DNA from: an uncultured virus (IMG/VR IMGVR_UViG_3300048552_000127)
Lineage: Duplodnaviria > Heunggongvirae > Uroviricota > Caudoviricetes
IMG/VR virus record: IMGVR_UViG_3300048552_000127
DNA length: 64,000 nt
Strand: one strand, 5' to 3'
The notes below the pieces were generated by a model. It searched no databases. It was given only the letters and a program-made list of their open reading frames with translations, and had not been told where the DNA came from. This document shows, in pieces, positions 2,688 to 17,695 of this stretch. Every line of letters begins with the position of its first letter. Position 1 is the first letter of the stretch. Made by a program: the position numbers and the translations under genes.

Positions 2688-5600
2688 TTAACTGTACCCC
2701 GTATGTTCAGATAATATAGTTGGTGTGTTAGTAGCATCTAGTGGTGTTATTCTTCTTAACTCTGTAGTACCGTCAGCACTTCTTAGAGATATGAAATAAG
2801 CATCCTTTTGTAATACCCTAGTCACTCCGTCTTGCCCAAAGTAATAAGTTGGATTATTATGATTAGCTATAATCTCTGATACGCTTTCCTGTACATCTAA
2901 TATTGTGCTATTATCTGGGGCAGTGTAATTAGAATCAAGTAAAGCATTATCTGTGCCTCTCATGTTGGTTACCGTTGTTACTGTAGCAACTACATCACTG
3001 GCAGGATCGAAGTCATTTAATGATTGAATCTCAGAGCTTTTTGCTAACCCGTCTTGTATCTCTATAACAGTAGGAGAACTCACTGTAAGTGTTCTAGTGG
3101 CGTTATTCCATATATCTGATACTAGACTAGTAAAAGAAGATAACGTCCTTGTAGTGTAATCCCACACGTCCTGTGCTGTAAGAGTAGAACGACTACTAAT
3201 TGTAGCATCCAAGTTATCTAATCTCACATCGTCAGATGCTAAAGGTGTTGGCAGATTATCTACACTACTTTGTGTAGCTCTACTGGACACTGCTGCATCT
3301 AAGTATTGATCCACTAGCACCTTAATGTCCGTTATCTGCTCAGAGTTAGCATTATATAGCCTGTCATTTGGAACCCATATAATAGTACTTGAATCTTCTG
3401 CAATAATAGATTCGCCTTGATAGTGTTTCCATATTCCATTTATAACAGTTAATTCAGAATCTACTTTAGAGTTTTTTATCTTCAACCGTCCCTCTAGTAC
3501 TATATTATATTCATCGGGGTTATAAACCAACCCTAGTGCATCATATATCAAAGCACCCTGTGTAGTGGTGTTGACCCATCTCCACCAAGCAATACCTCTT
3601 CGACAATCAAATATATCATTATCATCATTAATATTAACTTCTACATCTGTAAGATTAGCTGTAAGTTCTCCTCCATTGGAGCTGTCTACTAGACTACCAT
3701 CTAAGCCTACTACACCATCAAAGATCATATTGTTATGGATGGTATCATCTACTTGCGAGTCAATAAGTGTTATACCATTTTCAGTCATTACAGCAAATAT
3801 TCTTAATGGTAACTTAGCCAGTACACCTGATTGCCAGTTAGCTTTTATTAGAATAACATCCCCAAGTTGTGTCACTTCACTGCCACCTACTCTGACCTCT
3901 ATATCATAGCCATTACCACCTGACACTACACTGTTGTCTATTAAGGCTGGATTTATAATAATATCTTCCAATAAAGTAGAACGTGTGTAGTTGATTACTA
4001 CGACTCTAGTCCCATCTATTAAGTTTGGAATTGTAATAGGTAATAAGGGTGCAGGTTCACTCCATATGTAAGTAGAATCAAATGGGCATTGTATTTCTAT
4101 GCCCTGAATATAACCATCCTTTAAAGGGAGGGAGTTTTTAGTCACTCTAACTTTTAAAAACCACTCAGTTTCAAAAGTATATCCAGTCTGAGAATTTTGT
4201 AAATTAACCAAGGTTAAGTCTGAATAAGTAGAAGGTTCAGTTTCAGATATAAGCCATACTTTATATTCTACAGAGAAGTTCCATGTATTATTACCAGTAA
4301 TGTTTACAGCAGTAGCAATACCTACGCCTTTTTGTACATTACTTTGTTGCTCTGATACTGTGTTTGGTATGTAATAAGCCTTTCTTCCATTGAATACAAC
4401 TTCCCCTGTACTTGCTAAGTAAGGTTGTACCCATATACTTCCCTGATCTCCAGTGGAGTTGGTAATAATTTCACTGGATGTTGAACCTTTGCCTAACTTA
4501 GGAGTATTACCTATCATACTTACAAAGTGGTAATCTGTATTAGATTGTATCTGATTGCCATGATCGGTGTCATTAAGCATTTTTATGTTACTAAATCTCC
4601 AACCACGTTGGGCAAAAGTATTATAATCCCTAGAACCTCTAGAGCTTGTACCGTTGTTTATAACCCTATTTATAGAGCCTCTGCTATCTCCACCTAAGTT
4701 AAATATTTCATAAAAGTCTGCATCAATAGGGAATATAATGTCCTGAGAATCACTGCCTATATTGACTTCTCCAGAGTTTGCCAATATAAAATGTCTGGTC
4801 TGGTCAGGCCAAGGCTCTGTTCCTATACGTTCAAAACCTGTTATAGCACCCTTGATATCTCCATTTCTTAGATATATACCTGCGTATAAGCCTCCATCTG
4901 TCCTTTTATAACCAGTGCTATATTTTATATAGGTAGAACCTCCAACCCCTCCTTTAAACTCAAAGGCGTATTTATTACCTCCTAAGTCTATGACAACTGC
5001 ATCACCGCCGTTATTATACAGGCTAGTAAATGCGAATAATTGTTTTGAAGAGGGTTGTGTAAGATATCTAGCTTCTATAGTTCCATTTAAAGGCCTATAA
5101 GCATTAGCAACTCTTTCAGATATAGGTGTTGCTTCTATGGAATAGATAATATGATCTGTTCCTGTAGTTTCCCCTAAGGTGATTCTTCTATTGTTAGTAC
5201 CTGTTAGTACAAATACTGCATTTGCATGGGAGTTTTTAACTAAACGAGATGTTACATAATTGCCATTGTGGTTGACTATACCCCAGTAGGAGTCTTGTGT
5301 TAATTCTATACTATGATCAGAGGAGAACTTAGGTTTATTAAAGACTACTCCTCCTGTACCTATTAAAACTCCTTCATTTAGGAAAATATCGTTGTTATTC
5401 ATCTCTACATATAGGTTAGGTATCTGTATAGATCCTACAGGAGTTTTGCCATTTGTATTATCTCCTACTGTAATAACACCTGTGGTATTATCATATAAGA
5501 AATGCAATCCTCTTTCATCTGCATACATATTAGATAAAGATTCACACTCTGTGTAGCAGTCTCCATTATTAATAAAGAAACCTATATGTGACGGTCTATC

Positions 5601-5897
5601 TCCATTTGAATCTACTGGGACTACAAAAGGAGAGGTTAACGATATAAAACCAGAGTCTAACTCTATAGTACCTGGAGAAGCGTTTATATCTCCTGTCATA
5701 TTCAGGATTACTATACCCGAAGTAGAACTATTACTTAGTTTTAATCTCTGTAATGAACTATTACACCATAAAGTAGATATGTCTAGGCTAGATTCATCTA
5801 TAGTTAGAGTGGCAGAGCCTCCCAAATCTAGGGAATCCCCTGCCGAATATGTAATATTCGATAGGTTGGAGTCTGAACTGATGTTTATATTAGCCAT
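2688..5897 (-). CDS. Large virion fibre/spike-like protein
   Basis: 1069 aa, Asn/Gly/Thr/Ser-rich beta-type N-terminal part; C-terminal W-x-x-x-TRTL repeats (VWDYTTRTL, IWNNATRTL). Confidence 0.6.
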   Translation of the reverse strand: MANINISSDSNLSNITYSAGDSLDLGGSATLTIDESSLDISTLWCNSSLQRLKLSNSSTSGIVILNMTGDINASPGTIELDSGFISLTSPFVVPVDSNGDRPSHIGFFINNGDCYTECESLSNMYADERGLHFLYDNTTGVITVGDNTNGKTPVGSIQIPNLYVEMNNNDIFLNEGVLIGTGGVVFNKPKFSSDHSIELTQDSYWGIVNHNGNYVTSRLVKNSHANAVFVLTGTNNRRITLGETTGTDHIIYSIEATPISERVANAYRPLNGTIEARYLTQPSSKQLFAFTSLYNNGGDAVVIDLGGNKYAFEFKGGVGGSTYIKYSTGYKRTDGGLYAGIYLRNGDIKGAITGFERIGTEPWPDQTRHFILANSGEVNIGSDSQDIIFPIDADFYEIFNLGGDSRGSINRVINNGTSSRGSRDYNTFAQRGWRFSNIKMLNDTDHGNQIQSNTDYHFVSMIGNTPKLGKGSTSSEIITNSTGDQGSIWVQPYLASTGEVVFNGRKAYYIPNTVSEQQSNVQKGVGIATAVNITGNNTWNFSVEYKVWLISETEPSTYSDLTLVNLQNSQTGYTFETEWFLKVRVTKNSLPLKDGYIQGIEIQCPFDSTYIWSEPAPLLPITIPNLIDGTRVVVINYTRSTLLEDIIINPALIDNSVVSGGNGYDIEVRVGGSEVTQLGDVILIKANWQSGVLAKLPLRIFAVMTENGITLIDSQVDDTIHNNMIFDGVVGLDGSLVDSSNGGELTANLTDVEVNINDDNDIFDCRRGIAWWRWVNTTTQGALIYDALGLVYNPDEYNIVLEGRLKIKNSKVDSELTVINGIWKHYQGESIIAEDSSTIIWVPNDRLYNANSEQITDIKVLVDQYLDAAVSSRATQSSVDNLPTPLASDDVRLDNLDATISSRSTLTAQDVWDYTTRTLSSFTSLVSDIWNNATRTLTVSSPTVIEIQDGLAKSSEIQSLNDFDPASDVVATVTTVTNMRGTDNALLDSNYTAPDNSTILDVQESVSEIIANHNNPTYYFGQDGVTRVLQKDAYFISLRSADGTTELRRITPLDATNTPTILSEHTGYS

Positions 5898-5926
5898 CGT
5901 TTATATTCAAATCCTTATTGTTTACA

Positions 5927-6094
5927 TTATAGATAGATGTCTTGCTCTGAATCCTCTTGGAAGAAGTCATCTGTAACGTCTGCTATAAAGCAATTCTCGC
6001 AGATATCTTCTCTCTCTTGTATATTCTGTTTATACTCTTTAATGGGAAGTTTACAAGATGAGCAGAGTGTATTTATATTATCTATAATATCCAT
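5927..6094 (-). CDS. Small zinc-finger-like protein (55 aa, not in ORF track)
   Basis: Manual translation MDIIDNINTLCSSCKLP...DICENCFIAD...; CxxC...CxxC; first ORF downstream of the minus-strand promoter at 6230-6258. Confidence 0.6.
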   Translation of the reverse strand: MDIIDNINTLCSSCKLPIKEYKQNIQEREDICENCFIADVTDDFFQEDSEQDIYL

Positions 6095-6229
6095 ATTTGT
6101 TATTCTTATTATTTATTTTAATTATTCTGTGCAGGGCACTTTACTTTTAGTCTAAAATATGTATATAATAGAGTATAGGTAGTAGGTGTTCTTTGTTGTT
6201 ATTGTTTATTTCTTTACCTTATACTTACC

Positions 6230-6258
6230 ATTATATAGCAAAAACGATCAAAAGTCAA
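6230..6258 (-). promoter_or_regulatory. sigma70-like promoter for the terminase/virion operon
   Basis: TTGACT-N17-TATAAT on the minus strand. Confidence 0.7.
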
Positions 6259-6336
6259 GTGTTTTGATGAAATTAGTTGAAAATAATTGAAATTAGTATG
6301 ATTTAGACCTAATTTGGCACTAATATGAGATAAATG

Positions 6337-6365
6337 TTGACAATATAGATGAGTGCAGGTATTAT
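6337..6365 (+). promoter_or_regulatory. sigma70-like promoter
   Basis: TTGACA-N17-TATTAT. Confidence 0.7.
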
Positions 6366-6393
6366 ATTTGGACATTAACTGAGGAGAGAAGTA

Positions 6394-6570
6394 ATGGATG
6401 TGAGTTTAGAAGAGCTGTTTGAGATTAATCAAGGTGCTATTAAATCTACTAAAGAGGGTATGGTACTGAAGGTACATGATATGAAAGGCACAGTAAGCCG
6501 ATTTGGTACACATGAAGAGTGTGTTGCATATAACCAAGCAATGCAAAATGTTATTGACATGTTAGGATAA
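6394..6570 (+). CDS. Hypothetical protein (58 aa, not in ORF track)
   Basis: GAGGAG RBS, ATG..TAA open frame after the promoter. Confidence 0.6.
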   Translation: MDVSLEELFEINQGAIKSTKEGMVLKVHDMKGTVSRFGTHEECVAYNQAMQNVIDMLG

Positions 6571-6616
6571 GGTGTGTAACATACCACTAAACAACAATAT
6601 AAAGGTAGTAGAATAT

Positions 6617-6913
6617 ATGGGAAACATTGTAGATGAACTTTGGGAAGATGAAGTTACCACACCATTAGAATATGAACTTAGACGTATGTTCTATGGATAC
6701 CTTGATGGATTGGGCAAGGATAATGTTATGACGGACTCTGGGATAGAGCAGTACCTACACACCAGTTTAGACTATAATGTCTCTACAGAGAGCTACGGAA
6801 GCTCTGACATGGACATAGATGGCATAGGTTGGAAGAATAGCTACAGTAAAGAAGAAATAGACTATTTGGAGAAGGGATTAGATTCTTTTAAATTAAATGA
6901 AGAAAATACTTGA
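6617..6913 (+). CDS. Hypothetical acidic protein
   Basis: ORF track 6572-6913; ATG at 6617 follows an AAGGT RBS. Confidence 0.6.
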   Translation: MGNIVDELWEDEVTTPLEYELRRMFYGYLDGLGKDNVMTDSGIEQYLHTSLDYNVSTESYGSSDMDIDGIGWKNSYSKEEIDYLEKGLDSFKLNEENT

Positions 6914-6938
6914 CATTTGGAGCTTTTTGCTATATAAT
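6910..6938 (+). promoter_or_regulatory. Consensus sigma70 promoter upstream of the tRNA region
   Basis: TTGACA-N17-TATAAT. Confidence 0.8.
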
Positions 6939-7005
6939 AGGAAGTATAGGGTAAGTAATAGAAATAGGTATAATACAATTACTTATATTATATAGCAAAT
7001 AAGAC

Positions 7006-7034
7006 TTGACTTGTGTTAGAAAATACGTTATAAT
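7006..7034 (+). promoter_or_regulatory. sigma70 promoter of the tRNA cluster
   Basis: TTGACT-N17-TATAAT, 15 nt before the first tRNA. Confidence 0.75.
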
Positions 7035-7049
7035 ACAGGTAAGAGAGTA

Positions 7050-7126
7050 GGGTCTTTAGCATAGTTGATTAATGCAGCCGACTAATAATCGGAAGATGCG
7101 GGGTTTAAGTCCCTGAAGACCCACCA
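7050..7126 (+). tRNA. tRNA-Ile(AAT)-like, atypical
   Basis: Acceptor GGGTCTT/AAGACCC, anticodon loop CTAATAA, encoded CCA; T-loop TTTAAGT is non-canonical. Confidence 0.7.
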
Positions 7127-7132
7127 GTTAAT

Positions 7133-7209
7133 GTTCTCATAGCTCAATCGGATAGAGCAATAGATTTCTAATCTATAGGTTGTAGGTTCAAATCCTACTG
7201 GGAACGCCA
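7133..7209 (+). tRNA. tRNA-Arg(TCT)
   Basis: Full cloverleaf, ATAGA-TTTCTAA-TCTAT anticodon arm, GGTTCAAATCC, CCA end. Confidence 0.92.
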
Positions 7210-7350
7210 CATTAGAAGGTAAAGCCTCTCATAGAAGCTCAAATATAGATGGGATAACCCATATCGCCTAGTAGACGTATTAGGAGTCCTTCAATTATTG
7301 ACCAGTGTTAGTAATCTTATTAATTAGAATTATAAGGTAAAAGCCAGAGT

Positions 7351-7532
7351 CCTTGCCCCCACCTCTTCCTTACATTGGGACGTAAGATACGTGAGAAGAT
7401 ATACTAGATAAGGTTTATCAGTTCCTTATGTTCTAGTTAGGCTATCAATAATACTGAATACAGCTTACCACCTGTCGGGTAAGAAAGAGATTAATGTTAT
7501 ATCATGTCCCACATGGTTGATATATGGCAGGG
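7351..7532 (+). ncRNA. Candidate structured ncRNA
   Basis: Closing helix CCTTGCC/GGCAGGG, four internal hairpins, complementary loops TGGGAC/GTCCCA; no ORF. Confidence 0.45.
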
Positions 7533-7625
7533 TTATTAATAAATATAACTACCTTGGCTAGTCGAGGTTAAATAATACCAGTGATTAGGCTCGTATATCA
7601 CAGGGGTAGTTATATTTATTAATAA
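7533..7625. repeat. 21-bp perfect inverted repeat
   Basis: TTATTAATAAATATAACTACC (7533-7553) / GGTAGTTATATTTATTAATAA (7605-7625). Confidence 0.9.
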
Positions 7626-7626
7626 T

Positions 7627-7702
7627 GTCTCAGTAGCTCAATTGGTAGAGCGTTGGTCTCCAAAACCAAAGGTTGTAGGTTCGATCCCTACCTGATTCGC
7701 CA
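7627..7702 (+). tRNA. tRNA-Trp(CCA)
   Basis: TTGGT-CTCCAAA-ACCAA anticodon arm, GGTTCGATCCC, CCA end; two acceptor-stem mismatches. Confidence 0.8.
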
Positions 7703-7704
7703 TA

Positions 7705-8000
7705 TTAAAGCGGTTTTTGATGCAGTGTGTTACCGCTATATAAACAAAAATGACCAACCTTGAGATGGGTATAAGCTAGTACGATGAGTAAGGTAACAAT
7801 CTTAGCACTTGTCCCAAGGATGGGGCGGTAATCTATCTGAGCCTACACTATTTATAGTGGCAGAGATTATGTCAAGAGCGGTGTTATGGGGGATCGAATC
7901 TATCAAGTCCTCGCATATTAAACAGGTTACATTGGTGGTAATTTCCACGTCCAGAAGTGATGCTTCTGGCAACCCGACCTCATAAGTCGATAAACTATCC
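7705..8000 (+). ncRNA. Candidate structured ncRNA
   Basis: ORF-free, raised GC, several hairpins (GCGGT/ACCGC, CCTTG/CAAGG, CACTAT/ATAGTG, CCAGAAG/CTTCTGG, CGAC/GTCG). Confidence 0.35.
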
Positions 8001-8174
8001 CTGATAAATAAGATTGTAATTGACTAATAGATTAAGACTATATACACTATAGAGAATTAGGTGAGTAAGTTTTGCTAAGTTTAATTGAATATAATAATTT
8101 GATTAGCTTTGTATATCAACCACCTATGGCTCTATGATCTTGGGTGCATGAAAGAAAATTAATGTAGGTAGAAT

Positions 8175-8840
8175 ATGGTATTAGATTTAACAGGTGAAAT
8201 ATTCGGGAAACTAACTGTAGTAGGGGAGGACAAGGGAACTCCCAAAGGGTATAATTATTGGAGATGCGAGTGTGAATGTGGAGGTAAATCGAGTGTAAGG
8301 TCTAGTTATTTAAGAAGCGGACATACTAAGTCTTGTGGTTGCCTGAGAAGTACCGTAAGTAAAGAACTAAACACAACACACGGCTTAGCAGATAACCGTA
8401 TATACAACGTATACATAGGCATGAAAGCTAGGTGTTATAATAAGAATAGCGGCTCTTACCCCAACTACGGAGGAAGAGGAATTACCGTATGCCCCTATTG
8501 GTTAGAATCCTTTGAGAACTTTTATAATGATATAGGAGTAGATTATGAAGAAGGGCTGCAACTAGACAGAATAGACAATGATTTAGGGTATTCCAAAGAA
8601 AATTGTAGATGGGCTACACCCCAACAAAATCAAATGAATAAAGGATATAATATTAACGCATCAAGTAAATATAAAGGTGTTTCTTGGAACAAACGTAGTA
8701 CCAAATGGTTAGCTAAAATAAAGAAAAACGGAAAGGTACATTACATAGGAACATTCACCTTAGAAACCGAAGCCGCACTCGCCTACAACAAGAAAGCATT
8801 AGAACTCAACGGAGAATATGCTTACTTAAATAAAGTATAA
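8175..8840 (+). CDS. HNH homing endonuclease with C-terminal AP2-like domain
   Basis: WRCECECG, KSCGC, YGGRGITVC, LDRIDNDLGYSKENCRWAT, SKYKGVSW...AALAYN. Confidence 0.88.
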   Translation: MVLDLTGEIFGKLTVVGEDKGTPKGYNYWRCECECGGKSSVRSSYLRSGHTKSCGCLRSTVSKELNTTHGLADNRIYNVYIGMKARCYNKNSGSYPNYGGRGITVCPYWLESFENFYNDIGVDYEEGLQLDRIDNDLGYSKENCRWATPQQNQMNKGYNINASSKYKGVSWNKRSTKWLAKIKKNGKVHYIGTFTLETEAALAYNKKALELNGEYAYLNKV

Positions 8841-8847
8841 TCAACCA

Positions 8848-8876
8848 TTGACACACACCAAACATTAGAGTATAGT
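8848..8876 (+). promoter_or_regulatory. sigma70 promoter upstream of cassette array 1
   Basis: TTGACA-N17-TATAGT. Confidence 0.75.
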
Positions 8877-8904
8877 AGCTGTACATTAACTAGAGAGATA
8901 TAAT

Positions 8905-9126
8905 ATGACTACACAAGTTACAGTAAGTATAAACCAAAATATATGGTGGGATAATCACCAAGCATTAGTAGATGCTAAAGATAATGTATTAGATCTACTG
9001 GAAATGATAGACTGTCATAGTACATCAAAAATAGATAAGTGTATGCGAGATGTATATGAGAAAGAGATACGAACATTAAATAGCTTATTAGAGTATTCAA
9101 GTAATAACGGTGGTGTTCCTTTTTAG
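8905..9126 (+). CDS. Hypothetical protein
   Basis: 73 aa, RBS and promoter upstream. Confidence 0.65.
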   Translation: MTTQVTVSINQNIWWDNHQALVDAKDNVLDLLEMIDCHSTSKIDKCMRDVYEKEIRTLNSLLEYSSNNGGVPF

Positions 9127-9199
9127 GAGGGTATAATATGCTACAACAATTAAATGATACAATAGGCTCACATAAAGTGTTTGATTATGTTAAGGTGTA

Positions 9200-9238
9200 G
9201 GATAACCACAACCTTCGATTTGAAAGCGGTTGTTATGA
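9200..9238 (-). repeat. Truncated attC-like site
   Basis: GATAAC...ACAACC/GGTTGT...GTTATG, only about 38 bp. Confidence 0.45.
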
Positions 9239-9261
9239 TCTATTAATTAAGGAGAATATGT

Positions 9262-9450
9262 ATGTTTGATTCACTAAAAAGTTTAACTAAGGCAACGATA
9301 GGTGCGGTGGTTGAAACACCTTTAGCTGTAGCTGCTGATTTTGTCACACTAGGTGGCTCTATAACAGAAAGGGATGAGCCTTACACTACTACAGCAATCA
9401 AGAAAGTAGTAAAAAACGTAAGCGATTCTACTGAAAGCGATGAAACATAA
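9262..9450 (+). CDS. Cassette-borne hypothetical protein
   Basis: 62 aa, AAGGAG RBS; its stop TAA lies inside the ACATAAC core of the next attC. Confidence 0.75.
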   Translation: MFDSLKSLTKATIGAVVETPLAVAADFVTLGGSITERDEPYTTTAIKKVVKNVSDSTESDET

Positions 9451-9512
9451 CGTTGGTAACACAGGCAACTGAAGCGTAGCGGAAGTTGTCCTTGTGATTA
9501 CCCTTGTTATAC
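9445..9512 (-). repeat. attC site
   Basis: ACATAAC...GGTAACACAGGCAACT / AGTTGTCCTTGTGATTACC...GTTATAC; near-identical to 17696-17763. Confidence 0.85.
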
Positions 9513-9545
9513 AAAATTAAATTAATTAAATAAAAGGTAATTAAA

Positions 9546-9785
9546 ATGGAAAATAAAAAGTACTGGTATAAAATGGATAACGTAACAAACAGATTAGTAT
9601 TAGATATTGATGACTTAGCCAATAACAGAGATATAAGTGAGTCTGAACGTATAGGACAGTTAGATGTTATTATTAACAAAAGCCAAAAACTAAAGGAAGA
9701 GGTAGTGTCTACATATATTCATAAATTGCAAACACTAGCTAGACCTAATATTCCAGTTGGTAGTAATCCGTTAAGAGATGTATAA
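9546..9785 (+). CDS. Cassette-borne hypothetical protein
   Basis: 79 aa, AAGGT RBS; converges on 9789-10022. Confidence 0.6.
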   Translation: MENKKYWYKMDNVTNRLVLDIDDLANNRDISESERIGQLDVIINKSQKLKEEVVSTYIHKLQTLARPNIPVGSNPLRDV

Positions 9786-9788
9786 AGT

Positions 9789-10022
9789 TTATTTACAATA
9801 AACTGTAATAGTTTGATGGTGCTCTTTAACTATTGTATTACCTTCATCTATTTCTATAAGAGCGTGCTCTATTTTTGTAACTGTATAACTAAGATTCCAC
9901 TCATCATGGTTCTTCTGGTTGGTATAAGATATGAGTTTAATAGAGTCTCCTACATTAGGGACAGAATCTACTTTAGTATGATAGTGACCGTCTTTAGTAG
10001 TTTGTAAAGTAATATCTATCAT
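9789..10022 (-). CDS. Cassette-borne hypothetical protein (canonical orientation)
   Basis: 77 aa, AGGAGG RBS and TGnTATAAT upstream on the minus strand. Confidence 0.7.
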   Translation of the reverse strand: MIDITLQTTKDGHYHTKVDSVPNVGDSIKLISYTNQKNHDEWNLSYTVTKIEHALIEIDEGNTIVKEHHQTITVYCK

Positions 10023-10079
10023 GCTCCCTCCTAGGGATTATTAAAGGTTTTAGAATTATAACACTGTATTAGAAAAGAT

Positions 10080-10135
10080 TTATAACCTTGCGAGCAGCGG
10101 CGTTGCAAGCGTCCGACTGACTTGCGTTGTTATAT
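10080..10135 (-). repeat. attC site
   Basis: TTATAAC...GCGAGCAGCGGCG TTGCAAG CGTCCGACTGACTTGC...GTTATAT, imperfect hairpin with bulges on the right arm. Confidence 0.85.
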
Positions 10136-10149
10136 TAAGGAGGCAAGAT

Positions 10150-10323
10150 ATGGCTACAGAATTGAAAGTTAGACATTTGTATGATGGTATATATCAAGTA
10201 GTTGAGTTTGACCTAAGCGACGATGATCGCTACAAATACGAAGATGAAAGTGTTTTACACCAAGGCAGTATTGCTGATTGCGAGGCGTATATACGGCTGA
10301 AAAATAGTTATTTATTGGTGTAA
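10150..10323 (+). CDS. Cassette-borne hypothetical protein (57 aa, not in ORF track)
   Basis: AAGGAGG RBS; MATELKVRHLYDG...YIRLKNSYLLV* fills the cassette. Confidence 0.75.
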   Translation: MATELKVRHLYDGIYQVVEFDLSDDDRYKYEDESVLHQGSIADCEAYIRLKNSYLLV

Positions 10324-10405
10324 ATATAACCATCGTTTAATTTGCGGCGGTAGATAGTGAGAAAAACACGGCGGTTTAACCGTCGAATTGAAATTGTTGT
10401 TATAA
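10324..10405 (-). repeat. attC site
   Basis: ATATAAC...TTTAATTTGCGG...CCGTCGAATTGAAA...GTTATAA. Confidence 0.75.
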
Positions 10406-10424
10406 ATTATTTTGGAGACAAGAA

Positions 10425-10688
10425 ATGATAAAGCGGAAAAGAAATTATAAGAATGCGACACTTTGGCACAACGATGATGGTGAGTTTGGCGCAGCATGTG
10501 GATGGCTATTAAAGTGTGACAATGTATCTAATAGGCTAAGCACAGATGTTTTTTATGGTGCTATAGGCGTTAGCGGTATTCACTATAAGCTTGTTAAGGC
10601 TTTCGGAAGAAAAATAAGCGATAAAAATTCTCATGGTTATGAATGCTGGACGTTGTTCGGTCTTCTTTTTGAACCGATGGTTAATTGA
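10425..10688 (+). CDS. Cassette-borne hypothetical protein
   Basis: 87 aa, GGAG RBS, fills the space between two attC sites. Confidence 0.7.
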   Translation: MIKRKRNYKNATLWHNDDGEFGAACGWLLKCDNVSNRLSTDVFYGAIGVSGIHYKLVKAFGRKISDKNSHGYECWTLFGLLFEPMVN

Positions 10689-10689
10689 C

Positions 10690-10748
10690 TTATAACGCCA
10701 ACTTCAAAGGCAACGCTTTTTGTTGTCCTTTGTAAGTTCTTGTTATGT
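10690..10748 (-). repeat. attC site
   Basis: TTATAAC GCCAA CTTCAAAGGCAAC GCTTTTT GTTG(T)CCTTTG(T)AAG TTCTT GTTATGT. Confidence 0.88.
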
Positions 10749-10759
10749 TTTATTTATAG

Positions 10760-10790
10760 AAAAAGGCGTGTCAGCCTAACTGTTACACGC
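10760..10790 (-). terminator. Intrinsic terminator inside a cassette
   Basis: GCGTGT...ACACGC stem followed by a T-run on the minus strand. Confidence 0.6.
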
Positions 10791-10802
10791 AAGATTATGG
10801 TT

Positions 10803-10952
10803 TTACACTTTAGCTAGAAACAAAGTAACTCCTGTTGCTAGCATTAACGATACTACTGGATCAAACCCTGAGTTGCATAATGTAATGTACAACCCAGAGA
10901 ATGTACCCAAACGCAAGTGTAAATTGCCTTTAGTATTATTTGAGGTTTTCAA
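10803..10952 (-). CDS. Small hydrophobic peptide (49 aa, TTG start, not in ORF track)
   Basis: MKTSNNTKGNLHLRLGTFSGLYITLCNSGFDPVVSLMLATGVTLFLAKV; lies between a structured leader and a terminator. Confidence 0.45.
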   Translation of the reverse strand: MKTSNNTKGNLHLRLGTFSGLYITLCNSGFDPVVSLMLATGVTLFLAKV

Positions 10953-11088
10953 TACCTGACCTTCTTTTTAATACTTGTACAGAAGCCTCTTAATAGAGTC
11001 GGACACGTACGTTAAGGCTTTTGCCACCTATTCTAGGTTCACAGACGCTATGGTGGTGGCAACCCGACTGTAATTTTGCGTTTTTTAC

Positions 11089-11156
11089 ACATAACGCCGT
11101 AATTAGCGGCAAACGAAACGTAGTGTAGTTTGTCCGACTACATTACCTTGTTATAG
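11089..11156 (-). repeat. attC site
   Basis: Minus strand reads CTATAAC AAGGT AATGTAGTCGGACAAAC...GTTTGCCGCTAATT ACGGC GTTATGT, a classic attC top strand. Confidence 0.9.
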
Positions 11157-11161
11157 GTTTT

Positions 11162-11461
11162 TTATGTTTGAAATTTATGTTTGGATTCCATTGGTACTTT
11201 TTCTATTTCTTTGTCTTTGTGATCGTTCTGGTAATGATAAAGAATAATAGCAACAACTAGAGTTAGTATTGCAGATACTATTTTTCCAGAGTGGTTGTTG
11301 AAGAAACCAACAATAACTCTAACTATTTTAGCAGTCCAATGGTATTCCGTAATTAGGATTGGCATAACCTTAACATTAGGCATTTGAAGTTTATCAAATG
11401 TTTCAAGTCTGGAAGTACCTTGATACCATTTTTTGATTGATAGTAATAGTTTCTTAAACAT
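11162..11461 (-). CDS. Cassette-borne membrane protein (canonical orientation)
   Basis: 99 aa with hydrophobic helix IVSAILTLVVAIILY; flanked by GTTATAGGT / ACCTATAAC. Confidence 0.7.
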   Translation of the reverse strand: MFKKLLLSIKKWYQGTSRLETFDKLQMPNVKVMPILITEYHWTAKIVRVIVGFFNNHSGKIVSAILTLVVAIILYHYQNDHKDKEIEKVPMESKHKFQT

Positions 11462-11469
11462 GTTTGTAC

Positions 11470-11534
11470 CTATAACCCTGAAATAATTCGGGAGCGAGCT
11501 TGCGAGTGAATCGCAATTAATTTTGTTGTTATAT
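11470..11534 (-). repeat. attC site
   Basis: CTATAAC...AAATAATT...AATTAATTTT...GTTATAT. Confidence 0.7.
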
Positions 11535-11550
11535 TTTTAGGAGTGAGCGG

Positions 11551-11739
11551 ATGAGTGCATTACTTGAAGACTTAGAGGCAATGAGGGTAAAACTTGATGC
11601 TGCGATACGTTGGAATTTTGGTGTTATAGGAAGTGACCCCATCTGTAATCAGCGGATGGAAGATGTTAACAGGCTAGAGGATGTATTGAGGGTGACGCAG
11701 CCCGACGAATACGCAGAATATAAAAACAGGTACTATTGA
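11551..11739 (+). CDS. Cassette-borne hypothetical protein
   Basis: 62 aa, AGGAG RBS, fills the cassette. Confidence 0.72.
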   Translation: MSALLEDLEAMRVKLDAAIRWNFGVIGSDPICNQRMEDVNRLEDVLRVTQPDEYAEYKNRYY

Positions 11740-11799
11740 ATATAACCACCAAATAAGCAGCTACGCTTTTTGTAGTCTGCTTGATTTGACTTGTTATGT
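11740..11799 (-). repeat. attC site
   Basis: ATATAAC CACCA AATAAGCAGCTAC GCTTTTT GTAG(T)CTGCTT(G)ATT TGACTT GTTATGT, with canonical extrahelical T and G on the plus strand. Confidence 0.9.
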
Positions 11800-11828
11800 G
11801 AATTTTATAAGGTATAATTGGAGGATTA

Positions 11829-12146
11829 ATGAACAAATTACCTGATGAGGAAAACAAGATGTACGCTATTGCATTTGACTTAAAAGTAGCAGATTTAGAC
11901 ATACATTACCAAGGAAATAACTACCAAAATGCTTATGGAGAGATTAAGAAGTTTTTAGGTGGTGAAGGGTTTACTAGACAACAAGGTTCTGTATATTTTG
12001 GTGATTCCGATGCTGTAGATATGGTTAAGTGTGTCATGTCAGTGAACAAGATGAGTAGGGCGTTGCCTTGGTTTAAAGACTGTGTGACGGATATACGAAT
12101 GTTGAGGATTGAAGAGAATAGTGACTTAGCTCCTGCATTGGAGTAA
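11829..12146 (+). CDS. vapD: VapD family (Cas2-like fold) nuclease, cassette-borne
   Basis: MYAIAFDL...NAYGEIKKFL...GFTRQQGSVYFG...WFKDCVTDIRMLRIEENSDL matches the VapD family pattern. Confidence 0.88.
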   Translation: MNKLPDEENKMYAIAFDLKVADLDIHYQGNNYQNAYGEIKKFLGGEGFTRQQGSVYFGDSDAVDMVKCVMSVNKMSRALPWFKDCVTDIRMLRIEENSDLAPALE

Positions 12147-12147
12147 T

Positions 12148-12210
12148 ACACATAACACTGCAAAACAAAGGAATCCCTGTTATCAGTAAATATCGTGATA
12201 ACGAGGATTC
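12148..12210 (-). repeat. Array-terminal recombination site (attI-like or half attC)
   Basis: Core CACATAAC, then hairpin GGAATCC-CTGTTATCA...TGATAAC-GA-GGATTCC; first 36 bp repeated at 26925-26960. Confidence 0.6.
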
Positions 12211-12243
12211 CTGTATATCAAAACATTAAGAAGTACATATAAT

Positions 12244-12429
12244 ATGAAAAATACATGCTTTATTAAACATTCTGAAGGTTTCTTCTTTAAGGTGTACGGA
12301 TATGGTTTATGTGTTAATAATAGAGATACAACTAAGCCATTATTCAGTATTAGAAATGGATATAGAAAAGAATTAAGATTAGGTAAATGGGGAGTTCAAT
12401 TGTTGAAGCCTAGTAAGTATATAAAGTAA
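12244..12429 (+). CDS. Hypothetical protein
   Basis: 61 aa ORF. Confidence 0.55.
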   Translation: MKNTCFIKHSEGFFFKVYGYGLCVNNRDTTKPLFSIRNGYRKELRLGKWGVQLLKPSKYIK

Positions 12430-12445
12430 GAGGGGTAAATATACA

Positions 12446-12745
12446 ATGAAATTGAAAGATAACACAGAAGCTAAATTTGGAGATATAATACGTTGGAATT
12501 GTTGGGATAATGATGACTTCGTTACGTGGAATATGACAGGGATGTACACTAGGCAAGGTGTTATATATTTAGGAGGAAGGATTGACTTCGGCTTAGGTAT
12601 AGGGCAGATATTGGAAGTGGAAGAAGTTATAGAGGAATCAGAGAATAATGACCCTGATGACTGTGGAATAGTTAAAGTAGGTATTGCGACAGACTTGACT
12701 AGATATATTAATAAATATGAGATGAAAAAGGAGAGTGAAGATTAA
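12446..12745 (+). CDS. Hypothetical protein
   Basis: 99 aa, RBS, overlaps the nrdA start. Confidence 0.65.
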   Translation: MKLKDNTEAKFGDIIRWNCWDNDDFVTWNMTGMYTRQGVIYLGGRIDFGLGIGQILEVEEVIEESENNDPDDCGIVKVGIATDLTRYINKYEMKKESED

Positions 12746-15569
12746 AAATAGAGTAGAAGATTATTTAGGTATTACTATAGATTATAACAGAGATGCTTTG
12801 TTAAAAGAAAAAGCTAAGAAGATGTTAACAACAAAGGGTTTTTATAAGAGGTCAAATGAAGACAGCCCTCAGCAAACTTTAGCAAGAGGGTCTACATGTT
12901 ATTCCTTTGGAGATTATGAGTTTGCACAGAGGATTTATGAGTATTCATCAAAAGGTTATTTTACATTTGCATCTCCTGTATTGTCTACAGCTATGGAAGT
13001 GGATTGGCCTACTTTCAATAAAGATGAGTTTGAAGTTGCAGGAGATTGGCTGGAAGAGAATGTAACGCCAGAGGGATTACCAATTAGTTGTTTCTTATCT
13101 CATATCCCAGATAATAAAGTGGGACTTGTAGAAGGCCGTAAGGAGACAGCATGGCTTAGTATGATGGGAGGTGGTATTGGTATAGGAATGAATAATAGAA
13201 GCCCTGATGAGAAGTCTACAGGGGTTATGGCACACCTAAGAGGTTATGATGCAGATGCCCTAGCATATAAACAAACTTCTAGCCGACGAGGAAGCATTGC
13301 AGCGTACTTAGATATAGACCACCCTGAGATTAAGAATTTTATTAGTTGTCGTAACCCTGTAGGCGGGGATTCTAATAAAAAATGTTTTAACTTGAATAAT
13401 GCTGTATGTATCACTGACTCTTTTATGGAGAAAGTTATAAAAGGTGAGAAGTATGAGCTTGTAGATCCTAAACATGGTGCAACTGGTACTTTTCTTGATG
13501 CTAGAGAAGTCATGGAAGATATAAACCAGCAACGTTATGAAACTGGTGAACCTTATATAATGTTTAAAGATACGGTTAATAGGGGTATCCCTAAATGGAT
13601 TACTAAACCTACTTACCATGTATCGCAGAGTAATTTGTGTGTCGCACCTGATACTTTTATACTCACGGATAAAGGACATATCCAAATAGGTGACTTAGAA
13701 AATGAAACCGTTAATGTGTGGAATGGGGAGCAGTTCTCAGAGACTACGGTAATTAAAACATCTGAAAGTAGCAGTCTATTTAGGGTAGGTTTAAACTCTG
13801 GTCAAGAGTTGGATTGTACAGAATATCATAAGTTTTATGTACAAGAAGACTACGGGAAAGACCCTGTAATGAAATCTTACAACGAGCTAAAAATAGGGGA
13901 TAAATTAATTAAATCTAAATTGCCTGTAATACAAGGAGATAAATTTTTAACTAACGCCTACCAGAATGGTTTTTATACTGGAGATGGTTGTGAAGTAAAA
14001 GGGAAATCCCGTGTGTACTTCTATGGAGAGAAGAAGGAACTAGAGGCTTGGTTTGATTTAGAACAAAGAGTAGACCAACCTCAGTACGACAGGGTTTATG
14101 GCAATTGTTCTGGACTAATGCCTAAATTCTTTGTACCCTCCAGTGAGTATAGTGTAGACATAAGACTTACATGGTTGGCTGGATTACTAGACGCTGATGG
14201 TACTGTAGCTAGGAATGGAGATAATGAATCACTACAACTGGCATCTATAAATAAAGACTTCCTGCTAGAAGTCCAACTTATGTTACAAACACTGGGTGTT
14301 AATTCTAAAGTATGTTTTGCCCGTAAAGAAGGTAAGTATTTACTGCCAGCTAATGATGGCACTGGAGGACTTAAAGAATATAATTGCTCTGAAACTAATA
14401 GATTATTAATAAGCTCTACAGGCCTTTATCAGTTAACTTCACTAGGTTTAGACTGTGTTAGGTTAAAATGGGAGAATAAAAAGCCACAAAGATGTGCAGA
14501 GCAATTTTCTAAAGTGATATTTTTACAGGATTTAGAAACAAAATCTTCTACATACTGCTTTAAAGAAGAACTTAGAGGTATGGGTATTTTTAACGGTATC
14601 CTTACAGGTCAGTGTTCAGAGATAACACTAATGACATCTGAGAAAAGAACTGCTGTATGTTGTTTATCTAGTCTTAACTTAGATAAATATGACGAATGGA
14701 AAGATACAACTATAGTAGAAGATTTAGTCAGATTATTAGATAATGTATTAGAATATTTTATACGTCTAGCACCAAAAGAATTATATAGAGCTGTACATTC
14801 TGCTAGCCAAGAAAGAGCTATAGGGTTAGGCAACTTAGGCTTTCATTCATTCTTACAGAGAAAGAACATACCATTCGAGTCTGGTGGTTTTAATAGTGCA
14901 TCGCAGTGGGCGCATATATTAACGTCTACCATACAAGAAAGAGCTATTGCATCTTCTAAAGTATTAGCTGAAGAACGGGGAGAGCCAGAAGATTGTATTG
15001 GTTCTGGAATGAGGAATAGCCACCTTACAGCAACAGCCCCAAATGCTTCAAGTAGTGATTTCGTTGGTGTCAGTCCTAGTATAGAGCCTTGGAGTTCTAA
15101 TGCTATAAATACTGAAGGTAGGGCTGGAAGTTACCTCATTAAGAATCCACATTTAGAAGATGTATTAGAGAAGTTAGGATTAAATACAGATGAGATGTGG
15201 GATAGTATTATAAAGAATAATGGCTCTGTACAACACAGAGATGACTTATCAGGTGAGATTAAAAAAGTATATAAAACTGCATCTGAGATAGATCCAATGT
15301 GGGTGGTAGAGTTAGCAGCTTTAAGGCAACCTAATATTTGCCAAGCACAATCATTAAATATTTTTGTTACAGCTAATATTACAAAAGAAAAGATGATGGA
15401 TGTAGTAATTGCTGCTTGGAAAAAAGGTGTAAAGACGTTATACTATTGTAGAGCTGAACAAGCATCTAAGACAAACATAGGTAAAGGAGATAAAGCACCA
15501 TTAAACTCAATACCTGTAGAAAGTACATTCAAGGTGGACATAGAAGAGTGTCTTTCCTGTCATGGTTAA
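12735..15569 (+). CDS. nrdA: Ribonucleotide reductase class Ia alpha subunit, intein-containing
   Basis: FASPVL, LPISCF, GGGIG, ETGEPY, SNL/CSEI split by an intein, APNASSS, KTLYYCR, C-terminal CLSCHG. Confidence 0.96.
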   Translation: MKIKNRVEDYLGITIDYNRDALLKEKAKKMLTTKGFYKRSNEDSPQQTLARGSTCYSFGDYEFAQRIYEYSSKGYFTFASPVLSTAMEVDWPTFNKDEFEVAGDWLEENVTPEGLPISCFLSHIPDNKVGLVEGRKETAWLSMMGGGIGIGMNNRSPDEKSTGVMAHLRGYDADALAYKQTSSRRGSIAAYLDIDHPEIKNFISCRNPVGGDSNKKCFNLNNAVCITDSFMEKVIKGEKYELVDPKHGATGTFLDAREVMEDINQQRYETGEPYIMFKDTVNRGIPKWITKPTYHVSQSNLCVAPDTFILTDKGHIQIGDLENETVNVWNGEQFSETTVIKTSESSSLFRVGLNSGQELDCTEYHKFYVQEDYGKDPVMKSYNELKIGDKLIKSKLPVIQGDKFLTNAYQNGFYTGDGCEVKGKSRVYFYGEKKELEAWFDLEQRVDQPQYDRVYGNCSGLMPKFFVPSSEYSVDIRLTWLAGLLDADGTVARNGDNESLQLASINKDFLLEVQLMLQTLGVNSKVCFARKEGKYLLPANDGTGGLKEYNCSETNRLLISSTGLYQLTSLGLDCVRLKWENKKPQRCAEQFSKVIFLQDLETKSSTYCFKEELRGMGIFNGILTGQCSEITLMTSEKRTAVCCLSSLNLDKYDEWKDTTIVEDLVRLLDNVLEYFIRLAPKELYRAVHSASQERAIGLGNLGFHSFLQRKNIPFESGGFNSASQWAHILTSTIQERAIASSKVLAEERGEPEDCIGSGMRNSHLTATAPNASSSDFVGVSPSIEPWSSNAINTEGRAGSYLIKNPHLEDVLEKLGLNTDEMWDSIIKNNGSVQHRDDLSGEIKKVYKTASEIDPMWVVELAALRQPNICQAQSLNIFVTANITKEKMMDVVIAAWKKGVKTLYYCRAEQASKTNIGKGDKAPLNSIPVESTFKVDIEECLSCHG
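13638..14612 (+). mobile_element. Intein (325 aa) with LAGLIDADG endonuclease in nrdA
   Basis: Starts CVAPDTFILT after SNL; block B LDCTEYHKF; GFYTGDG and LAGLLDADG motifs; ends NGILTGQ before Cys+1. Confidence 0.93.
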
Positions 15570-15587
15570 TAAAATAAAAGGATAGTA

Positions 15588-16583
15588 ATGTCAGTATTTA
15601 AAGAAAGTGAAAGTTATAGACCGTTTCAGTACCCTTGGGCTACGGAGGCAGCACGTAAGCACTCTATTGATATGTTTTGGGACGTACACCAAGTGGAGTT
15701 ACAAGAAGATTTAAGACAATATAATTCTAAGGATGGACTGAAGACAGAGAATGTTAGCCATGAAGTAAATAAGAATATTATTGATAAAGTGCTATGCCTA
15801 TTTACTGAAATGGATAAGACCGTAGGTGGTTCTTATACTAAACTAATACCTCGTATAGGTAATAATGAAATAAGAAACCTCCTTATTACCTTTGTAGGGA
15901 GGGAAGTGGTACACCAACGAGCATACGCTTTATTAGCAGAGACTTTTGGTTTTAGTGATAGTGATTGGGTTATCTTCTCTGAGTATGTAGAGATGCAAGA
16001 TAAGTTAGATATTATGTCACAAGAGGGAGAATTAGAATCTAAACTGGATGACGCTAAACTTCTTGCTAAGATACTATTAGGAGAAGGTATTGGATTATTT
16101 GCTGCTTTCGCTTGCTTCTTGAATTACAAACGCCAAGGATTGCTAGTAGGTTTTAATGATGTCAATGCTTGGTCATTAGCAGATGAAGCATTTCATGTAG
16201 AGAACAACATGAGAGTTCTAGTCCACATACGAGAGGACTTATCTGAGGTTGAGAATATAGAGTTAGATAAGTATATTGTATCTCTGGCTGGAGGTTACGT
16301 TGATGCAGAGATAAAGTTTATTGATTTAGTATTCGAGCTAGGAGATCAAGAAGATTTAACTAAAGAGGACTTACAAGAGTATATCAGATATCTACATGAT
16401 TTACGACTATACCAATTAGACTTAATGGATTACACAGAAGTTAGAGTCAATCCTCTGAAATGGATGGAGTGGATGTTAGGAGCTAAGAAACATAGCAACT
16501 TCTTTGAAAAACGTGTGACTGATTATTCACATAATAAACTACAAGGCGAAGTAGATTACGCGAAGTATGTAATAACACCTTGA
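15588..16583 (+). CDS. nrdB: Ribonucleotide reductase beta subunit
   Basis: YRPFQYPW, REVVHQRAY, EGIGLF, DEAFH, NFFEKRVTDY. Confidence 0.95.
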   Translation: MSVFKESESYRPFQYPWATEAARKHSIDMFWDVHQVELQEDLRQYNSKDGLKTENVSHEVNKNIIDKVLCLFTEMDKTVGGSYTKLIPRIGNNEIRNLLITFVGREVVHQRAYALLAETFGFSDSDWVIFSEYVEMQDKLDIMSQEGELESKLDDAKLLAKILLGEGIGLFAAFACFLNYKRQGLLVGFNDVNAWSLADEAFHVENNMRVLVHIREDLSEVENIELDKYIVSLAGGYVDAEIKFIDLVFELGDQEDLTKEDLQEYIRYLHDLRLYQLDLMDYTEVRVNPLKWMEWMLGAKKHSNFFEKRVTDYSHNKLQGEVDYAKYVITP

Positions 16584-16608
16584 CATACAACACAAACTCA
16601 TATACAAT
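16580..16608 (+). promoter_or_regulatory. sigma70 promoter
   Basis: TTGACA-N17-TACAAT. Confidence 0.7.
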
Positions 16609-16639
16609 AACCTCTCAATATAATTATTAGAGATACATT

Positions 16640-16873
16640 ATGAGCAACATGACTGAGATGGAAATGTGTACCACTTACAGACGTAAAAATGATCTATGTA
16701 CAATATCATGTAAATTAGGATTATGGTCTGTGAGTGGTAAGTGTGGGTTAGCATTAATCAATGAAGCAGATCATTATTTCAAGCAATATAAAGAAGATGG
16801 CGAGTATAGCAGTATTATTGGTGGTAAAAGTGCTAGTGAAGTGTTAAGTGAATTTTTAAATAGGGATAAATAA
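16640..16873 (+). CDS. Hypothetical protein
   Basis: 77 aa after the promoter. Confidence 0.65.
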   Translation: MSNMTEMEMCTTYRRKNDLCTISCKLGLWSVSGKCGLALINEADHYFKQYKEDGEYSSIIGGKSASEVLSEFLNRDK

Positions 16874-17029
16874 TGCTGGAAGATTCACAAAGTTATAGGA
16901 AAAAGACTCTCGGATGCTGGGTTTTGGGAATGAAGTGGTTTCGAGTACGTGAAGATACCTACTGGGAGTATTTAGAGTTGAAGAGTCAAGGTTCGCCCAA
17001 AACTTATTGGATTAAAAAGATGGAGTATT

Positions 17030-17239
17030 ATGGGAATGATTAGTGTAACACAATCAGAACAAACAGATGGTATAATCAAGACAACTACATTCTCTTCATC
17101 AGCAGAGGAAGCCTCAAAGTTGCTTAATTTCATGGTAGCTTATGAGTGTGGGATGCACAGAAAATCCCTAACACCTGATGAAGAGTTTTGGTATAGAAAC
17201 TACATGGGTATTTCTAATCCCATAGAAGGAAATAAATAA
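17030..17239 (+). CDS. Hypothetical protein
   Basis: 69 aa, GGAG RBS, coupled to the endolysin start. Confidence 0.6.
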   Translation: MGMISVTQSEQTDGIIKTTTFSSSAEEASKLLNFMVAYECGMHRKSLTPDEEFWYRNYMGISNPIEGNK

Positions 17240-17693: not shown

Positions 17694-17695
17694 GT

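Follow-up and report, generated by a model that had tools for sequence, protein, structure and literature searches.

The subject of this analysis is two arrays of small genes, separated by hairpin sites that resemble the attC sites of bacterial integrons, on a stretch of 64,000 nucleotides of DNA from an uncultured virus of the class Caudoviricetes (IMG/VR record IMGVR_UViG_3300048552_000127). This whole stretch is referred to as the window. It has a G+C content of 35% and encodes a terminase, ribonucleotide reductase subunits, a family A DNA polymerase, a primase-helicase, ThyX, baseplate and tape-measure proteins, several HNH homing endonucleases and three tRNAs, and it represents a lytic-looking marine myovirus. 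The large reductase subunit contains a LAGLIDADG intein, and the closest named phages on the basis of the reductase are the Rheinheimera Barba phages (61.8%). A genome size of about 100-145 kb is suggested by CheckV-type completeness figures of relatives. The two arrays lie on either side of the ribonucleotide reductase operon, one at 9.2-12.2 kb and the other at 17.7-18.6 kb. In an original prediction, made from the letters alone, the first of them was described as an integron-type cassette array with eight attC-like hairpins, each bounded by TAAC and GTTA. All eight were found in the sequence, with an ATAAC box on the left and a GTTAT box on the right; the array ends with a ninth box pair (S8), and a second array of three sites (17698-18615), downstream of the reductase operon, had been missed.

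Hairpin sites and their relation to bacterial attC sites

The sites were numbered S0 to S11 and are all given on the + strand. Array 1 starts at its distal end with S0 (9202-9236), a 35-nt miniature composed of a box pair and a short bulged stem, which belongs to the cassette of the open reading frame (ORF) ORF62 and is conserved in the related contig L007. It is followed by S1 (9447-9510), S2 (10082-10133), S3 (10326-10403), S4 (10692-10746), S5 (11091-11154), S6 (11472-11532) and S7 (11742-11797). The variable end is formed by S8 (12152-12183), a conserved backbone junction with both boxes and no attC hairpin (folding energy -1.3 kcal/mol, z-score -0.8). Array 2 consists of S9 (17698-17761), a near copy of S1, S10 (18278-18334) and S11 (18560-18615), the last being related to S7 by alignment. 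The inverse-core and core boxes TAAC...GTTA are present in all twelve sites, the left box being ATAAC in eleven and TTTAAC in S9; between S10 and S11 the box is the only common sequence.

On folding as single-stranded DNA, five sites (S1, S2, S4, S5 and S7) showed a common + strand architecture, in which an ATAAC/GTTAT stem of 5-6 bp is followed by 2-3 unpaired bases and then by a bulged stem. Its bulges, two or three in number, are of one base each and confined to the 3' arm of the + strand; the innermost is a T within a GTC motif. The folding energies range from -10.4 to -12.4 kcal/mol and the z-scores from -3.2 to -7.3 (S1: -11.5, z -3.4; S2: -11.4, z -3.8; S4: -12.4, z -7.3; S5: -10.4; S7: -10.5, z -5.3). 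S3 and S6 have longer centres, that of S3 being variable as well, and in neither does the minimum-energy fold close the boxes. Only 11 columns are invariant among nine sites, and compensatory changes were observed among the five sites in 12 of the 23 pairs. When 19 phage sites were aligned, 94.7% of the cells paired, against 35-53% when the partner column was slid, and changes on both sides were found in 16 of the 23 pairs; none of 500 shuffles attained any of these measures. S1 and its leader (9447-9545) are near-identical to S9 and its leader (17698-17794), the shared leader being about 30 nt long and the genes behind it unrelated. Near-identical hairpins with a shared leader before unrelated genes were also seen on the - strand of the sequence L006 (7990-7860 and 6585-6475; shared leaders in the range of 30-65 nt), and a hairpin with its leader looks like a reusable module.

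The segments between the sites have complementary ends. Six such end pairs had been quoted in the original prediction, and all six proved to be correct. In every one of the ten window cassettes, pairing beyond the 5-nt boxes connects the right flank of one site with the left flank of the site that follows, over 1, 1, 3, 2, 2, 4, 3, 3, 6 and 2 nt (mean 2.7). In the controls, the mean was 0.67 for the two flanks of one and the same site and 0.69 for 134 non-cognate flank pairs. The pairing is thus cassette-specific (permutation p = 2e-5) and includes the first variable position in all ten cassettes; complementary ends were likewise found in the cassettes of L007 and of a further relative, L136.

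No match to window positions 8800-12600 was found in a nucleotide search of 50,697 phage records, and an Rfam scan of the window returned the three tRNAs and no attC family. At E ≤ 1 it gave one weak match to Pseudomonadales-1 (20.3 bits against a threshold of 68 bits), and again no attC family. Two covariance models were used for comparison, R1 being built from S1, S2, S4, S5 and S7 and R2 from 47 bacterial sites only. On its five training sites, R1 scored 62.8-76.2 bits on the + strand (S1: 74.5 bits) and 10.2-19.8 bits on the - strand. It found five further sites in the window, all on the + strand and with 21.8-63.6 bits, namely S3 (21.8 bits, E 0.0057), S6 (27.4 bits, E 1.6e-4), S9 (63.6 bits, E 1.4e-14), S10 (29 bits, E 5.5e-5) and S11 (40.1 bits, E 4.5e-8); in array 2 the matches span 17696-17763, 18276-18336 and 18558-18617. 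The + strand outscored the - strand at every R1 match, and across the 64 kb nothing else was found at E < 0.1 besides weak minus-strand echoes of the same sites. R2 recovered the same ten sites, all on the + strand, with 19.6-64.3 bits (S1: 58 bits, E 2.2e-11; S2: 42.8; S3: 24.6, E 0.0021; S4: 53.2; S5: 64.3, E 6.7e-13; S6: 19.6, E 0.035; S7: 37; S9: 52.8; S10: 21.1; S11: 19.6), and nothing else at E < 0.05 across the 64 kb.

Clusters of attC sites without an integrase (CALINs) had been held in the original prediction to be described mainly in bacterial replicons, which overlooks published work on phages. According to the parts of the paper drawn on here, Qi, Rajabal, Ghaly, Tetu and Gillings (2023; PMC9892861) screened 10,705 phage genomes and found 17 CALINs, among them those of the virulent phages TJE1, P12002L and PH101 (the Pseudoalteromonas phage called H101 below). 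It was reported there that five of six tested phage sites recombined in assays of IntI1 with attI1, and that, for two sites of H101, recombination with attI1 by IntI1 was about as frequent as for attCaadA7, the assays being made in E. coli (PMC9892861). R1 matched four sites in H101, at 75.9-78.0 kb and with 36-45 bits, and on reading the stretch two of them were seen to be PH101_attC1 and PH101_attC2, the sites tested in that study. Three sites were matched in the array of Tetrasphaera phage TJE1.

Among 151 gammaproteobacterial genomes, R1 matches were present in 27 (E ≤ 1e-4) and a match to the integron integrase in 55 (TIGR02249, E ≤ 1e-40). Integrase-positive genomes made up 19 of the 27 with R1 matches and 36 of the 124 others (odds ratio 5.8, Fisher p = 8.4e-5); on leaving out the unpublished genomes G043 and G145, both among the 36, the test gave p = 5.2e-5. 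At nine intI loci, R1 matches were found on the array side of the same contig (one locus each in G036, G066, G072, G078 and G092, two each in G068 and G118). They lay within 4 kb at eight of these loci and at 21 kb in G066, all on the intI coding strand; one further match was found in G022, 53 kb from intI and on its other side. Many bacterial loci had several same-strand matches, spaced 0.3-1.4 kb apart.

In the bacterial arrays, the longest ORF (at least 40 amino acids) was found opposite the R1-match strand in 13 of 15 cassettes. In bacterial cassettes the recombinogenic strand is the bottom strand, complementary to the genes, and IntI cuts it at AA|C, corresponding to G|TT on the top strand. 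Since the modelled strand is complementary to the bacterial genes, it corresponds to the bottom strand, and the + strand of the window is on this modelling the recombinogenic "bottom" strand. The published consensus of attC is RYYYAAC/GTTRRRY. The fifth base of the right box in the window is T (GTTATRY) and not a purine as in GTTRRRY, and the core crossover consensus is quoted as G|TTRRRY in PMC9892861. T was also found at this position in the IntI1-validated sites of H101 and TJE1 and in 26 of the 47 bacterial sites, though these were found with a model trained on that variant. Judged by the models and the strand behaviour, the sites of the window are of the attC type and belong to the bacterial attC family. 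With seven model-supported sites within 2.4 kb, three within 0.9 kb and no tyrosine recombinase in the 64 kb, the arrays are of the CALIN kind, and the original prediction of such an array in a lytic-looking phage is supported.

Cassette turnover among related genomes

That relatives should be compared for indels bounded by the core boxes had been proposed as a test in the original prediction, and three assembled relatives (L007, L136 and L137) were found to differ in just this way. Their backbones are 95-99% identical and their cassettes differ, which indicates that the turnover is recent. L007 is a viral contig of 25,952 nt and matches the window at 770-7756, 8838-9451, 12148-17706, 17741-18282 and 18559-19818 with 98-99.9% identity. 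In array 1, seven cassettes of the window (S1 to S7; 9452-12147) are replaced in L007 by three others, which carry a DNA methyltransferase gene, a 68-aa ORF and an ORF matching phrog_924; the edges of the replaced block lie at 9451 and 12148-12152. S0 and ORF62 are common to both, and are followed by S1 in the window and by a different hairpin in L007. In array 2, the S10 cassette (18283-18558) is cleanly missing from L007, with both edges in ATAAC and with S11 kept and not S10, and one extra cassette is present at S9. L136 has the three cassettes of L007 plus two more, which lie between those three and S8, and the left flank of S8 is altered accordingly. The S8-proximal cassette of L137 is the same as that of L136, and its array 2 contains the extra cassette of L007 together with the S10 cassette.

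The changed hairpin next to ORF62 and the retention of S11 in L007 show that each hairpin belongs to the gene behind it. The register of the original prediction, in which a hairpin was assigned to its upstream gene, has to be shifted, as the hairpin travels with the downstream gene in the comparison with all three relatives. The breakpoints of the turnover place the exchange point in the left ATAAC box of the + strand, at the very position at which IntI cuts a bottom strand. The crossover at G/TT that had been proposed holds for the - strand, and not for the right-hand box of the + strand. The arm with the exchange point is opposite to the arm with the bulges, and the geometry derived from the indels agrees with that derived from the folds. 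Cassettes are thus gained and lost as units at the core boxes.

Backbone identity to L007, L136 and L137 resumes at 12148-12152, i.e. at S8, and S8 is abutted by three different cassettes across the window and the assembled relatives. A contig of the metagenome run X11 joins the ORF57 cassette to S8 (10330 to 12148), suggesting a fourth. Two assemblies, the window and L007, extend as far as the distal end of array 1, and both have the same distal cassette there, as would be expected if insertion takes place mainly at S8. S8 is therefore a candidate insertion point of array 1, a single conserved junction at which new cassettes would pile up. A second, inverted copy of S8 was found on the - strand at 26925-26957, where a 67-aa ORF of the same strand ends. 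A 19-mer is exact at 26925-26943, and by blastn the copy is 97% identical over 36-41 nt within 26921-26961; no hairpin sites were found near it. Loose contig ends at 12187 were considered as a sign of recombination at the right box of S8 and were rejected as such, as they match sequence downstream of this second copy at 26.9 kb.

The array stretch was found to be partly present in seawater or marine runs of 10 studies, and contigs of four metagenome runs were compared with it at 90% likeness. Nine contig joints concern the arrays, and for 16 of the 18 endpoints a box is at most 5 nt away. These joints are weak support for turnover, since at 90% likeness they may stem from repeats or from other organisms, and the intervening sequence was seen for few of them; little or no contig cover of array parts in runs X6 and X11 was not counted as absence. 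Distant relatives with terminases 74-75% identical also carry sites. No site was found in the nearest virus record compared (G001), and no R2 match with four more distant relatives of the S8-adjacent gene (L138, L139, L141 and L142; 44-60% identical), of which L139 was covered 6 kb upstream.

Cargo genes and their orientation

The cassettes carry ten ORFs, eight of them on the + strand (ORF62, ORF79, ORF57, ORF87, ORF62b, the VapD-family gene, ORF106 and ORF64) and two on the - strand (ORF77 and ORF99). ORF62 (9262-9450, +) of the S0 cassette matches phrog_33676 (E 1.3e-13), is shared with L007 and has homologs of about 50% identity in two Xanthomonas phages; in Xanthomonas phage X1 the homolog is an ordinary gene among tightly packed genes, with no array. 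The cargo of the S1 cassette (9546-10022) consists of the convergent ORF79 (9546-9785, +) and ORF77 (9789-10022, -), neither with a family match. ORF57 (10150-10323, +) of the S2 cassette has its ribosome-binding site directly behind the GTTAT box. It is followed by ORF87 (10425-10688, +) of the S3 cassette, for which no family or Protein Atlas match was found. The body of the S4 cassette (10747-11090) has no convincing ORF, the longest stop-to-stop frame being 59 aa and devoid of start context; the cassette, of about 400 nt, has no Rfam match and may be a gene-less one with a non-coding role. ORF99 (11162-11461, -) of the S5 cassette has the canonical, opposite-strand orientation and no family match, and ORF62b (11551-11739, +) of the S6 cassette was taken from the ORF list. 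In array 2, ORF64 (18354-18548, +) belongs to the S10 cassette, which is missing from L007 and present in L137. ORF106 (17795-18115, +) of the S9 cassette has a full-length homolog of 81% identity. An antisense ORF of 101 aa (17882-18187, -) with a zinc-ribbon-like CxxC pair overlaps it and has one near-identical match only, and either frame of this cassette may be the coding one. For cassette ORFs other than ORF62, VapD and ORF106, no match was found.

The S7 cassette carries a VapD-family gene with a Cas2 fold (11829-12146, +; PF09827, E 1.5e-6). The protein scored 64.9 bits against NF041506 VapD, which is under the 100-bit cut-off of that model, and is up to 79% identical to bacterial proteins named VapD by their sources. 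It has 1353 database relatives and matches just 2 of 50,697 phage records, which points to a bacterial origin of the gene. The methyltransferase gene of L007 (8469-9194) is divided by a single in-frame TGA into parts of 57 aa and 181 aa, and the same stretch is present in L136.

Each cassette gene on the + strand has a ribosome-binding site and an ATG behind the GTTAT box. Outside support for the + strand genes exists for ORF62 and VapD, and in L007 for the methyltransferase and the phrog_924 ORF. In H101, the three annotated array genes are on the same strand as the R1 matches. In TJE1, the genes are opposite to the matches, i.e. in canonical orientation. Within the lineage itself the reversal is not general: in two relatives with terminases 74-75% identical (G156 and G157), the cassettes seen have ORFs of 133-140 aa on the opposite strand. 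Among promoter-like matches in the region, the three highest-scoring ones (11 of 12 consensus positions) all point rightward, and two lie just upstream of the arrays, at 8848-8876 (+; TTGACA, 17 nt, TATAGT) before array 1 and at 17665-17693 (+) directly before array 2; these are matches to the consensus only. A promoter-like match of at least 9/12 follows just two of the twelve sites. At S7 (11791-11818, 10/12) and at S10 (18328-18355, 9/12), the right-box TTGTTA also serves as the -35 element of a promoter-like match before the cassette gene. That the genes are reversed points to phage transcription, and not an integron promoter, as the source of selection.

Source of the recombinase and comparison with known systems

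The original prediction had stated that no tyrosine recombinase is encoded in the window, and this was borne out. Neither this nor any other recombinase family was found when 58 window ORFs, including every non-antisense ORF of at least 170 aa, were scanned with Pfam and 20 further scans were made with PHROGs. The window does not contain a complete integron, as it has no intI (PF00589) and no recognisable attI or Pc promoter. PF00589 had no match in seven fragments of relatives (G001, G002 and G155-G159; 8.6-35.9 kb) or in the complete 131.9-kb genome of H101, the control genomes all being matched. Together with the family and polarity of the sites and the assays of H101 sites with IntI1, this makes the host, as the original prediction had inferred, the most plausible source of an integrase acting in trans.

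On the analysis as a whole, the window probably holds two arrays of genuine integron-type cassettes, with the crossover in the left ATAAC box and an IntI-type recombinase acting in trans, likely that of the host. The site family, strand and polarity, the cassette-specific pairing of the ends and the whole-cassette differences between near-identical genomes were established above. A cassette would consist of an attC-type hairpin and the DNA behind it on the + strand (C-hairpin-GTTATyyy...gene...xxxATAA), and the + strand would be the one that folds and is cut within the left ATAAC box. Cassettes would be excised as circles, which an IntI-type tyrosine recombinase would insert to the left of resident sites, in array 1 most often at S8. 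This enzyme would act in trans, most likely from a host integron during infection, and the cargo, which includes a VapD-family nuclease in the window and a DNA methyltransferase in L007, may benefit the phage. A more far-reaching proposal, which we regard as tentative, is that this lineage of marine lytic phages keeps an integrase-less platform of its own, with S8, a conserved double-box junction found twice, as primary insertion site. The cassettes would be reversed, the hairpin standing before a gene on the recombinogenic strand, so as to be expressed from phage promoters at the distal array end, and would be exchanged within the phage population by means of the integrase borrowed from the respective host.

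Several observations weigh against the reading of two integron-type cassette arrays served by an IntI-type recombinase in trans. R1 had no matches on 80 bacterial vapD loci (365 kb), and S0 and S8 are matched by neither model. The training sites of R2 were picked by R1, which makes the reciprocal test not fully independent. One junction is imprecise, as the extra cassette of L007 and L137 ends within a truncated S9, and the contig joints that go back may be repeats, S1 and S9 being near copies. Eight of the ten cargo ORFs lie on the strand opposite to the bacterial norm, and reversed cargo of this kind is less simply reconciled with a phage-adapted pool of cassettes than with their direct capture from the array of a host. 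The 64-kb window is less than half of the estimated genome, and a phage-encoded recombinase may lie elsewhere.

This last point leads to the rival reading of a self-contained system, in which a recombinase encoded outside the window (an integron-type or Xer-like tyrosine recombinase, or an unrecognised one) would act on S8 and its 26.9-kb copy as primary sites. The amount of genome outside the window, several large ORFs without a family match, and the conservation of S8 on the backbone, with its changing neighbours and its two copies, speak for it. It is nevertheless unlikely, given that PF00589 was absent from the window ORFs, the related fragments and the complete H101 genome with the same site type, that the sites fit bacterial attC models with the polarity of bacterial sites, and that those of H101 are substrates of a bacterial IntI1. 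The idea that the arrays are a passive relic or an assembly chimera of host integron DNA is largely refuted and has almost no remaining credibility. It draws on the window being a metagenome-type assembly, but both array positions recur with their backbone in the independent assemblies L007, L136 and L137 and in contigs of a run of another study, and sites are also present in the distant relatives mentioned above. Moreover, the G+C content of the cassettes (0.31-0.42) resembles that of the backbone (0.35-0.36), and the variation of cassette content among near-identical genomes indicates recent turnover.

It might also be supposed that the hairpins are terminator-promoter modules like the promoter-early stem-loops (PeSL) of T4-type phages, shuffled by homologous recombination, and that their likeness to attC is incidental. 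As described in the parts of PMC2839356 and PMC4122927 consulted, PeSL occur as hairpins that separate small orphan genes where the genomes of large lytic phages are variable, with whole-gene indels between close relatives and proposed circular intermediates, and the order of hairpin, ribosome-binding site and gene is alike in the two systems. The leader of about 30 nt that S1 and S9 share before different genes, and one of about 65 nt at two sites of H101, would also be in line with this supposition, as would the mini-circles to which PeSL exchange gives rise. PeSL differ, according to the same sources, in having a conserved promoter and a simple terminator stem and in exchanging by homology. 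The sites of the window are unconserved in sequence, with few invariant columns while the stems covary, and have one-sided bulges; exchange takes place at a 5-nt core box, even between unrelated hairpins such as S10 and S11. Cassette-specific pairing of the flanks would be unexpected from homologous exchange, promoter-like matches of at least 9/12 follow only two of the twelve sites, and the models match bacterial attC arrays beside intI, all of which makes the PeSL reading very improbable.

Of the known systems, the CALIN of H101 is similar in its site type (ATAAC...bulged hairpin...TTGTTAT), in having no integrase, in its small genes mostly of unknown function, in adjoining ribonucleotide reductase genes and in having its genes on the R1-match strand. 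Orphan DNA methyltransferase cargo is likewise shared by the relative L007 and, according to PMC9892861, by other phages. The window is larger than the H101 array, with ten model-supported sites and two box-only junctions in two arrays. No natural gain or loss of cassettes between related phages, bottom-strand genes or conserved insertion junction is described in the consulted parts of PMC9892861, and no paper beyond it was found in the literature on attC arrays in virulent phages. Integrase-less attC arrays in virulent phages are thus already published; natural turnover and reversed gene polarity are what is added here. With bacterial integrons the arrays share the attC architecture, in which the extrahelical bases of the bottom strand are on its 3' arm, the AAC/GTT crossover, the complementary cassette ends, the accumulation of cassettes at one array end, a gene-less cassette and toxin-type cargo (VapD family). 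They differ from these not only in what the window lacks, as stated above, but also in that eight of ten ORFs are on the bottom strand with the hairpin first, the top strand being the one used in 13 of 15 cases from the sampled bacterial arrays, and in that near-consensus promoter-like phage sites lie at the distal end of each array. IntI has been reported to insert cassettes at non-att sites, termed attG, in bacterial genomes (Loot et al., 10.1101/2022.09.11.507474), and this may offer a route for seeding the first cassette in a phage backbone, e.g. at S8 or at the left edge of S9. The arrays are a concrete case for lytic phages taking part in the integron cassette economy, and the analysis supplies sites, strand and polarity that can be tested.

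Other differences between the window and its relatives were seen outside the arrays. An AP2-HNH homing endonuclease gene (8175-8840; stretch 7757-8837) is swapped in L007 for unrelated DNA with a 132-aa ORF, and a contig of run X6 passes over it; the edges do not coincide with hairpin sites. A contig of run X7 has 3411 other letters in place of window positions 12414-16571, i.e. of the whole reductase operon. The LAGLIDADG intein (13573-14649) is skipped by a contig of run X11 (1075 nt), indicating that some relatives have the reductase without the intein.

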